Positions 41,752 through 42,531 of a DNA stretch of 64,000 bases are shown in pieces (position 1 is the stretch's first letter; every line of letters begins with the position of its first letter). Below the pieces are notes generated by a model that was not told where the DNA came from, ran no database searches, and saw nothing but the letters and a program-made list of their open reading frames with translations. The stretch is from Escherichia coli (GTDB lineage: Bacteria; Pseudomonadota; Gammaproteobacteria; Enterobacterales; Enterobacteriaceae), in NCBI RefSeq assembly GCF_051903065.1, contig NZ_CP178438.1. One strand, 5' to 3'. Made by a program: the position numbers and the translations under genes.

Positions 41752-42531
41752 TCAGATAAAGTGCTTACGCAACCGTTGAGAGAGGAAATCCAGCAGGCTG
41801 ACCGTGACGATAACCAGCACCATCAGGGCGCAGGTTTGCTGGAACTGGAAACCGCGAATCGCTTCCCACAGCGTGACGCCGATCCCGCCCGCGCCGACCA
41901 TGCCGACGACGGTCGCCGAGCGGACGTTGGATTCGAAGCGATAGAGGGAGTAGGAGATCAGCAGCGGCATCACCTGCGGCAGCACGCCGTAGAGGATCTC
42001 TTCGAGCTTGTTGGCACCGGTGGCGCGAATGCCCTCCACCGGGCCGGGTTCAATCGCTTCCACCGCTTCGGAAAGCAGTTTGGAGAGCACGCCGGTGGTG
42101 TGAATGAACAGCGCCAGCACGCCAGCGAACGGGCCGAGGCCGACGGCGACCACGAACAGCATGGCGAAGACCATTTCGTTAATGGCGCGGCAGGCGTCCA
42201 TCAGGCGGCGAACGGGCTGGTAAACCCACCACGGCACCAGGTTTTCGGCGCTCATCAGGCCGAAGGGGATGGAGAGAATCACCGCCAGCGCGGTGCCCCA
42301 GACGGCGATTTGCAGCGTGACGAGCATTTCGGTGAGGTAATCCTGCCACTGGCTGAAATCGGGCGGGAAGAAGTCGGCGGCGAAGGTCGCCATGTTGCCG
42401 CCGTCTTTGATCAGCGTGAGCGGGGCCATTTCCGCGCCCTGCCACGAGACGACCAACACGGCGAGTACAACGGCCCAGCTCAGAAGCGAGAACCAGCTGC
42501 GCTTGGGTGGGGCGATGGTGATGGTTTGCAT
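41752..42531 (-). CDS. phnE: phosphonate ABC transporter permease PhnE (intact)
   Basis: 259 aa uninterrupted frame from ATG 42531 ([19 protein letters not shown]). Confidence 0.9.

Follow-up and report, generated by a model that had tools for sequence, protein, structure and literature searches.

In type I ABC importers, an EAA loop docks the permease to the ATPase. In the PhnCDE phosphonate/phosphate ABC importer of Escherichia coli, the periplasmic phosphonate-binding protein is PhnD, PhnE makes up the membrane channel and ATP hydrolysis falls to PhnC. A functional E. coli phnE allele was reportedly described by Makino et al. in 1991 and by Iqbal et al. in 2004. Such an allele, phn(EcoB)/phn(EcoK+), is described by Stasi et al. 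(2019, PMC6469041), and the frameshift in K-12 phnE is already known to the point of being textbook material (Makino 1991; Iqbal 2004; Stasi 2019). Phn+ revertants of K-12 arise readily and carry a phnE with two units of an 8-bp tandem repeat (PMC6469041, PMC4759930), having lost 5'-GCTGGCGT at ORF positions 407-414 (PMC6469041). No structure of PhnE was found among solved structure entries. The nearest by sequence is MetI, the permease of the methionine ABC importer (PDB 3DHW, 6CVL; E=7e-6 over PhnE residues 125-254). MetI and PhnE have in common the BPD_transp_1 fold class of type I ABC importers and the EAA coupling loop, but the similarity is distant only, and MetI serves another substrate and binding protein.

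Here we describe phnE in a 64,000-nucleotide stretch of E. coli DNA (assembly GCF_051903065.1, contig NZ_CP178438.1), which we call the window. Most E. coli carry an intact phnE, an ordinary and well-described state, and the window gene holds nothing new in mechanism, family or context.

Repeat tract and allelic state of phnE

The phnE coding sequence occupies 41752..42531 on the minus strand and comprises 259 codons plus stop (780 nt). Pairwise alignment with phnE of MG1655, using positions 4310000-4328000 of NC_000913.3 as the K-12 reference, revealed only one indel, an 8-column gap, besides ~20 SNPs. The MG1655 repeat reads CCCGTTC-GCTGGCGT-GCTGGCGT-GCTGGCGC-TG, with three 8-bp units, and that of the window CCCGTTC-GCTGGCGT-GCTGGCGC-TG, with two. 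In the window the tandem units lie at 42111..42126 (minus strand), corresponding to ORF nucleotides 406-421 and codons 136-141 (AGVLAL). K-12 carries its third unit at this slippage site. Counting units by pattern gave two for the window and three each for MG1655, 300709 and SF10. The initial annotation had pointed to an inactivating 8-bp duplication in K-12 MG1655 phnE. That duplication is real: it appears in the alignment as the extra unit and fits the published lesion, and phnE1/b4583 carries a pseudogene flag in NC_000913.3. The window lacks it.

These features separate the window gene from one described allele and join it to another. The cryptic K-12 gene phnE1/phnE2 (b4583) is the same gene at the same locus with the same repeat motif, GCTGGCGT, but its third 8-bp unit shifts the frame after residue 140 and brings in a stop at codon 190. 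The arrangement that defines the cryptic phn(EcoK0) allele, GCTGGCGT twice plus GCTGGCGC with the attendant frameshift, is thus absent from the window. The functional phn(EcoB)/phn(EcoK+) allele is like that of the window in having two 8-bp units and an open 259-codon frame between phnD and phnF. When we removed one unit from K-12 phnE in silico, the resulting phn(EcoK+) protein differed from window PhnE at 3 of 259 residues, all conservative substitutions (A70L, V85I and I240V). What sets the window apart from the functional allele is its nucleotide haplotype, which lies ~20 SNPs from K-12 and recurs exactly in only three complete genomes. This DNA allele is rare: 3 of 5396 records were 100% identical to it, and 6 were at least 99% identical. 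We read the feature as a wild-type 'ON', phn(EcoB)-like phnE allele and predict the strain to be Phn+, with a probability of about 0.93.

A terminator-like match on the repeat (42127-42112) was dismissed, as it arises from self-complementarity of the repeat within a coding region. Such matches numbered 6, against 3.7 expected in shuffles (sd 1.8), and were not clearly above expectation.

Reading frame, start codon and predicted PhnE protein

The minus-strand frame is open over 41752..42594 and counts 280 amino acids from its earliest start, GTG 42594. ATG 42531 lies in frame with this GTG and is followed by 259 sense codons, no internal stop and a terminal TGA, so the continuous, unshifted 259-codon gene of the initial annotation was reproduced on re-translation. 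In ECNB21-M121, whose sequence here is identical, PGAP annotates the same 780 nt as phnE and not as a pseudogene.

Where translation begins bears on the length of the protein. A longer PhnE of 276 or 280 residues, initiated at ATG 42582 or GTG 42594, would agree with the frame being open as far back as 42594 and with the MG1655 RefSeq/EcoCyc pseudogene feature (b4583), which starts at the position equivalent to 42582. Both of these upstream starts, however, lie within a palindromic REP-type element in the spacer between phnD and phnE (42550..42630, plus strand; Rfam RF02564 naRNA4, 69.1 bits against a gathering score of 59.5), so that the N-terminal extension would sit inside the palindrome. 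The extension is also covered by no profile column, as the PhnE HMM alignment begins at residue 16 of the 259-residue protein. A GGAG ribosome-binding site, read off the sequence at 42538..42541 (minus strand), stands 6 nt 5' of ATG 42531, and PGAP uses the 259-codon start both in ECNB21-M121 and in carriers of the three-unit allele. On these grounds we rejected the upstream starts, consider the longer protein highly improbable and regard ATG 42531 as the best-supported start; the function of PhnE would not change whichever start is real. In MG1655, the b4583 annotation opens at the ATG within the REP element. Because of this placement, and because PGAP uses the downstream ATG, the K-12 phnE start annotation is probably too long.

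The encoded protein is a member of the PhnE family of phosphonate permeases. It scores 311 bits against the NCBIfam equivalog TIGR01097 (cut-off 216.7; E=5.7e-93), spanning profile positions 8-251 of 252, and 91.7 bits against Pfam BPD_transp_1 (PF00528; E=6e-26) over residues 88-258. These two scores mark phnE as a real gene rather than a chance ORF. The protein combines an inner-membrane transport domain with an EAA-type coupling loop (EAVEAIEPG...GVLP, residues 155-185), and immediately upstream of its gene, on the same strand, lie phnD for the binding protein and phnC for the ATPase. The repeat-encoded residues 136-141 fall within a strongly hydrophobic segment; the EAA-type loop follows downstream, and a further hydrophobic segment spans residues ~237-245.

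Two units keep the conserved cytoplasmic EAA coupling loop and the remaining membrane segments in frame, and in the window the entire domain is read through. With three, as in K-12, the frame shifts after residue 140 and ends at codon 190. Translated from the same ATG, the K-12 allele gives 189 amino acids that match window PhnE through ...GPFAGVLA and then run out of frame. This product is missing the coupling loop along with the C-terminal 119 residues, and the absence of the EAA loop accounts for the failure of uptake in K-12, where the otherwise intact C-P lyase genes are left cryptic.

The phn operon and the origin of the window

The operon phnCDEFGHIJKLMNOP is complete in the window, with 14 of 14 cistrons collinear and uninterrupted on the minus strand. 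The gene for the ATP-binding subunit, phnC (43678..44466), encodes an intact 262-residue protein (NF007438, 595 bits) with 95.4% amino acid identity to K-12 and no gaps. That for the periplasmic phosphonate-binding protein, phnD (42637..43653), is likewise intact (338 residues; TIGR03431, 376 bits) and aligns over its full length at 99.4%. Downstream of phnE lie phnF (41006..41731), encoding an intact GntR-family regulator of 241 residues (NF007486, 514 bits), and the C-P lyase pathway genes phnG-H-I-J-K-L-M-N-O-P (33653..41005), all ten intact at 95.7-100% amino acid identity and bearing these names in the PGAP annotation of ECNB21-M121. A tblastn search with MG1655 PhnC, D, F, G, H, I, J, K, L, M, N, O and P gave an ungapped, end-to-end match for every protein, at 95.4-100% amino acid identity. 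The genes phnC, phnD and phnF-P all begin with ATG, end in a stop codon and contain no internal stop, and PhnC, PhnD and PhnF score above the cut-offs of their NCBIfam equivalogs.

The region upstream of phnC is similarly conserved. Over 140 nt, two aligned bases differ from MG1655: one, G to A, falls between the Shine-Dalgarno sequence and the start codon, and the other is far upstream on the alignment margin. The promoter stretch CTGTTAGTCAC...CGTCAC (44511..44543, minus strand) is identical to that of MG1655 in the alignment. This stretch is the putative Pho box, or PhoB site; Makino et al. reportedly placed a Pho box in the phnC promoter in 1991. The phoB and phoR genes lie outside the window.

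With none of the 14 operon genes disrupted and the region ahead of phnC intact, a working phosphonate uptake and C-P lyase pathway is a reasonable prediction. The initial annotation had made this prediction from intact phnC, phnD and phnE, and it is supported as far as sequence goes by the full-length phnC, phnD and phnF-P genes and the conserved stretch ahead of phnC. When starved of phosphate, the strain would thus be expected to import alkylphosphonates and then cleave them; the activity of the transporter, its Pho-regulated expression and the growth phenotype are predictions. The pathway might still be inactive despite an intact phnE, if one of the divergent phn genes carried a disabling missense change or if induction were lacking. 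In favour of this, the phn genes have 94-98% nucleotide identity to K-12, with the right flank closer (yjdM 99.4%, rdcA 98.6%, ProP 100% at the amino acid level), and substitutions relative to K-12 number 12 in PhnC, 10 in PhnP and 8 in PhnN. Yet all the proteins are full length and, where tested, above their NCBIfam equivalog cut-offs, the three PhnE changes are conservative, and the phnC promoter and Pho-box stretch are conserved. Most E. coli are, moreover, Phn+ in published work (PMC6469041). We give an inactive pathway a slim chance and retain the prediction of a Phn+ strain.

Sequence divergence also bears on the origin of the window. A K-12 derivative whose phnE had reverted to the two-unit ON form by slippage would have exactly this repeat number, and such revertants readily arise (PMC6469041, PMC4759930). 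But phnE itself differs from MG1655 at its ~20 positions apart from the 8-bp gap, and the 12-kb operon alignment has 95.9% identity, with 455 mismatches (94.1% to 97.7% nucleotide identity for single phn genes). In addition, collinearity with MG1655 is lost left of yjdP, where a different sugar island stands in place of als/rpiB, and the window matches E. coli ECNB21-M121, isolated from meat in Zhejiang, at 99.995% identity over 40.8 kb. SNP density and synteny rule out a K-12 revertant, to which we assign no probability at all. The initial annotation had offered the intact phnE as confirmation of a non-K-12 source. The source itself stands, on an operon that is ~4% divergent, on the loss of synteny and on the ECNB21-M121 match. 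The phnE allele, by contrast, is no proof of it, because K-12 revertants carry the two-copy form and many wild isolates the three-copy form.

Several further comparisons with K-12 emerged across the window. Between yjcS and yjdP (~23971-33112), the K-12 als-rpiB genes (rpiB, alsRBA) are absent. Going by how the near-identical ECNB21-M121 is annotated, the genes in their place encode a response regulator, a carbohydrate kinase, a ketose-bisphosphate aldolase, a D-lyxose/D-mannose isomerase, a sugar ABC transporter and a hybrid sensor kinase. The lower identity of the phn genes (33653-44466), set against the much closer stretch at 45680-51281 that holds yjdM, rdcA and proP, marks the operon as a segment of local divergence that may be a recombination tract. 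From yjdN to yjdM, a tandem array at 45163-45662 holds 4.9 copies of a 100-bp unit and five Rfam naRNA4 (REP325-type) matches of 86-111 bits; MG1655 has ~one unit more, and the copy number is therefore strain-variable.

Elsewhere, an Rfam SECIS_2 match (15982-16036, minus strand; 87 bits) lies inside fdhF, as expected for the selenocysteine insertion element of formate dehydrogenase H. An Rfam STnc630 sRNA match (51330-51495, plus strand; 182 bits) sits just 3' of proP and overlaps the small pmrR. Without indels relative to K-12, PmrB/BasS (51467-52555, minus strand) carries H2R, A242T and V351I, and PmrA/BasR (52568-53233, minus strand) carries S29G. The pmrB coding sequence is 1101 nt in the PGAP annotation of ECNB21-M121 against 1092 nt for K-12 basS; no insertion occurs across the 363 aligned residues, and the greater length probably reflects a different annotated start.

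ON and OFF phnE alleles across E. coli

The three-unit form proved common well beyond K-12 laboratory stocks. An exact 35-nt junction query found the frameshift in 1012 of 5426 complete E. coli genomes. Two longer queries agreed with this count, returning 1009 records with the three-unit form at 95% identity or more, and 997 records in the 80-90% band, in which each sampled row spans 84 nt. The two-unit form accounted for 3857 of 4866 classifiable records (79%), ~10% of complete genomes being unclassifiable by repeat number owing to the megablast word size. Among 59 evenly spaced three-unit carriers, roughly 43-45 had a human, animal, food or water origin and were not laboratory lines. Two examples are 300709 (human stool, Mozambique) and SF10 (duck, China), whose three-unit phnE is marked 'frameshifted' by PGAP and which share 99.94-99.97% identity with MG1655 across 3 kb. 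We regard the commonness of the 'K-12' OFF allele in natural isolates as an only mildly interesting by-product of the analysis.

OFF alleles were found almost only on a K-12-like flank haplotype. When complete E. coli genomes were searched with a synthetic three-unit query carrying the window flanks, no three-unit allele was found on the window flank haplotype; the best match was the K-12-type flank haplotype, at 97.6%. The band at 99% identity or more equalled in size the 88 window-like two-unit genomes of another query, and its members are probably partial alignments. Because the three-unit form had no match on window flanks and its best match lay on K-12-type flanks, the OFF allele looks inherited in a K-12-like lineage and not recurrent across the species. 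The distribution fits a single ancestral OFF event passed on within a phylogroup-A-like lineage, and it points to a single lesion inherited through a large lineage of natural strains, not to an artefact of the laboratory. That the 8-bp tract is instead a natural contingency (phase-variable) locus, which the window happens to show in its ON state, we consider unlikely. The evidence tilts against active switching throughout E. coli, because OFF alleles sit almost only on K-12-like flanks, with none found on the window haplotype. Were the locus phase-variable, loss of PhnCDE phosphonate/phosphate uptake would be tolerated or favoured in a large natural lineage.

Iqbal et al. reportedly suggested in 2004 that the OFF form is peculiar to K-12; if they did call it K-12-specific, the present genome data would revise that view. 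The repeat number of phnE is also an unreliable marker of K-12, because revertants look 'wild-type' and about one-fifth of complete E. coli genomes are frameshifted. Annotators should score the strain described here as Phn+, with methylphosphonate, 2-aminoethylphosphonate and similar compounds predicted as phosphorus sources. Such a strain is also predicted to import phosphate through PhnCDE. Metabolic models based on K-12 treat PhnCDE as cryptic, and they should not be transferred unchanged to this strain.
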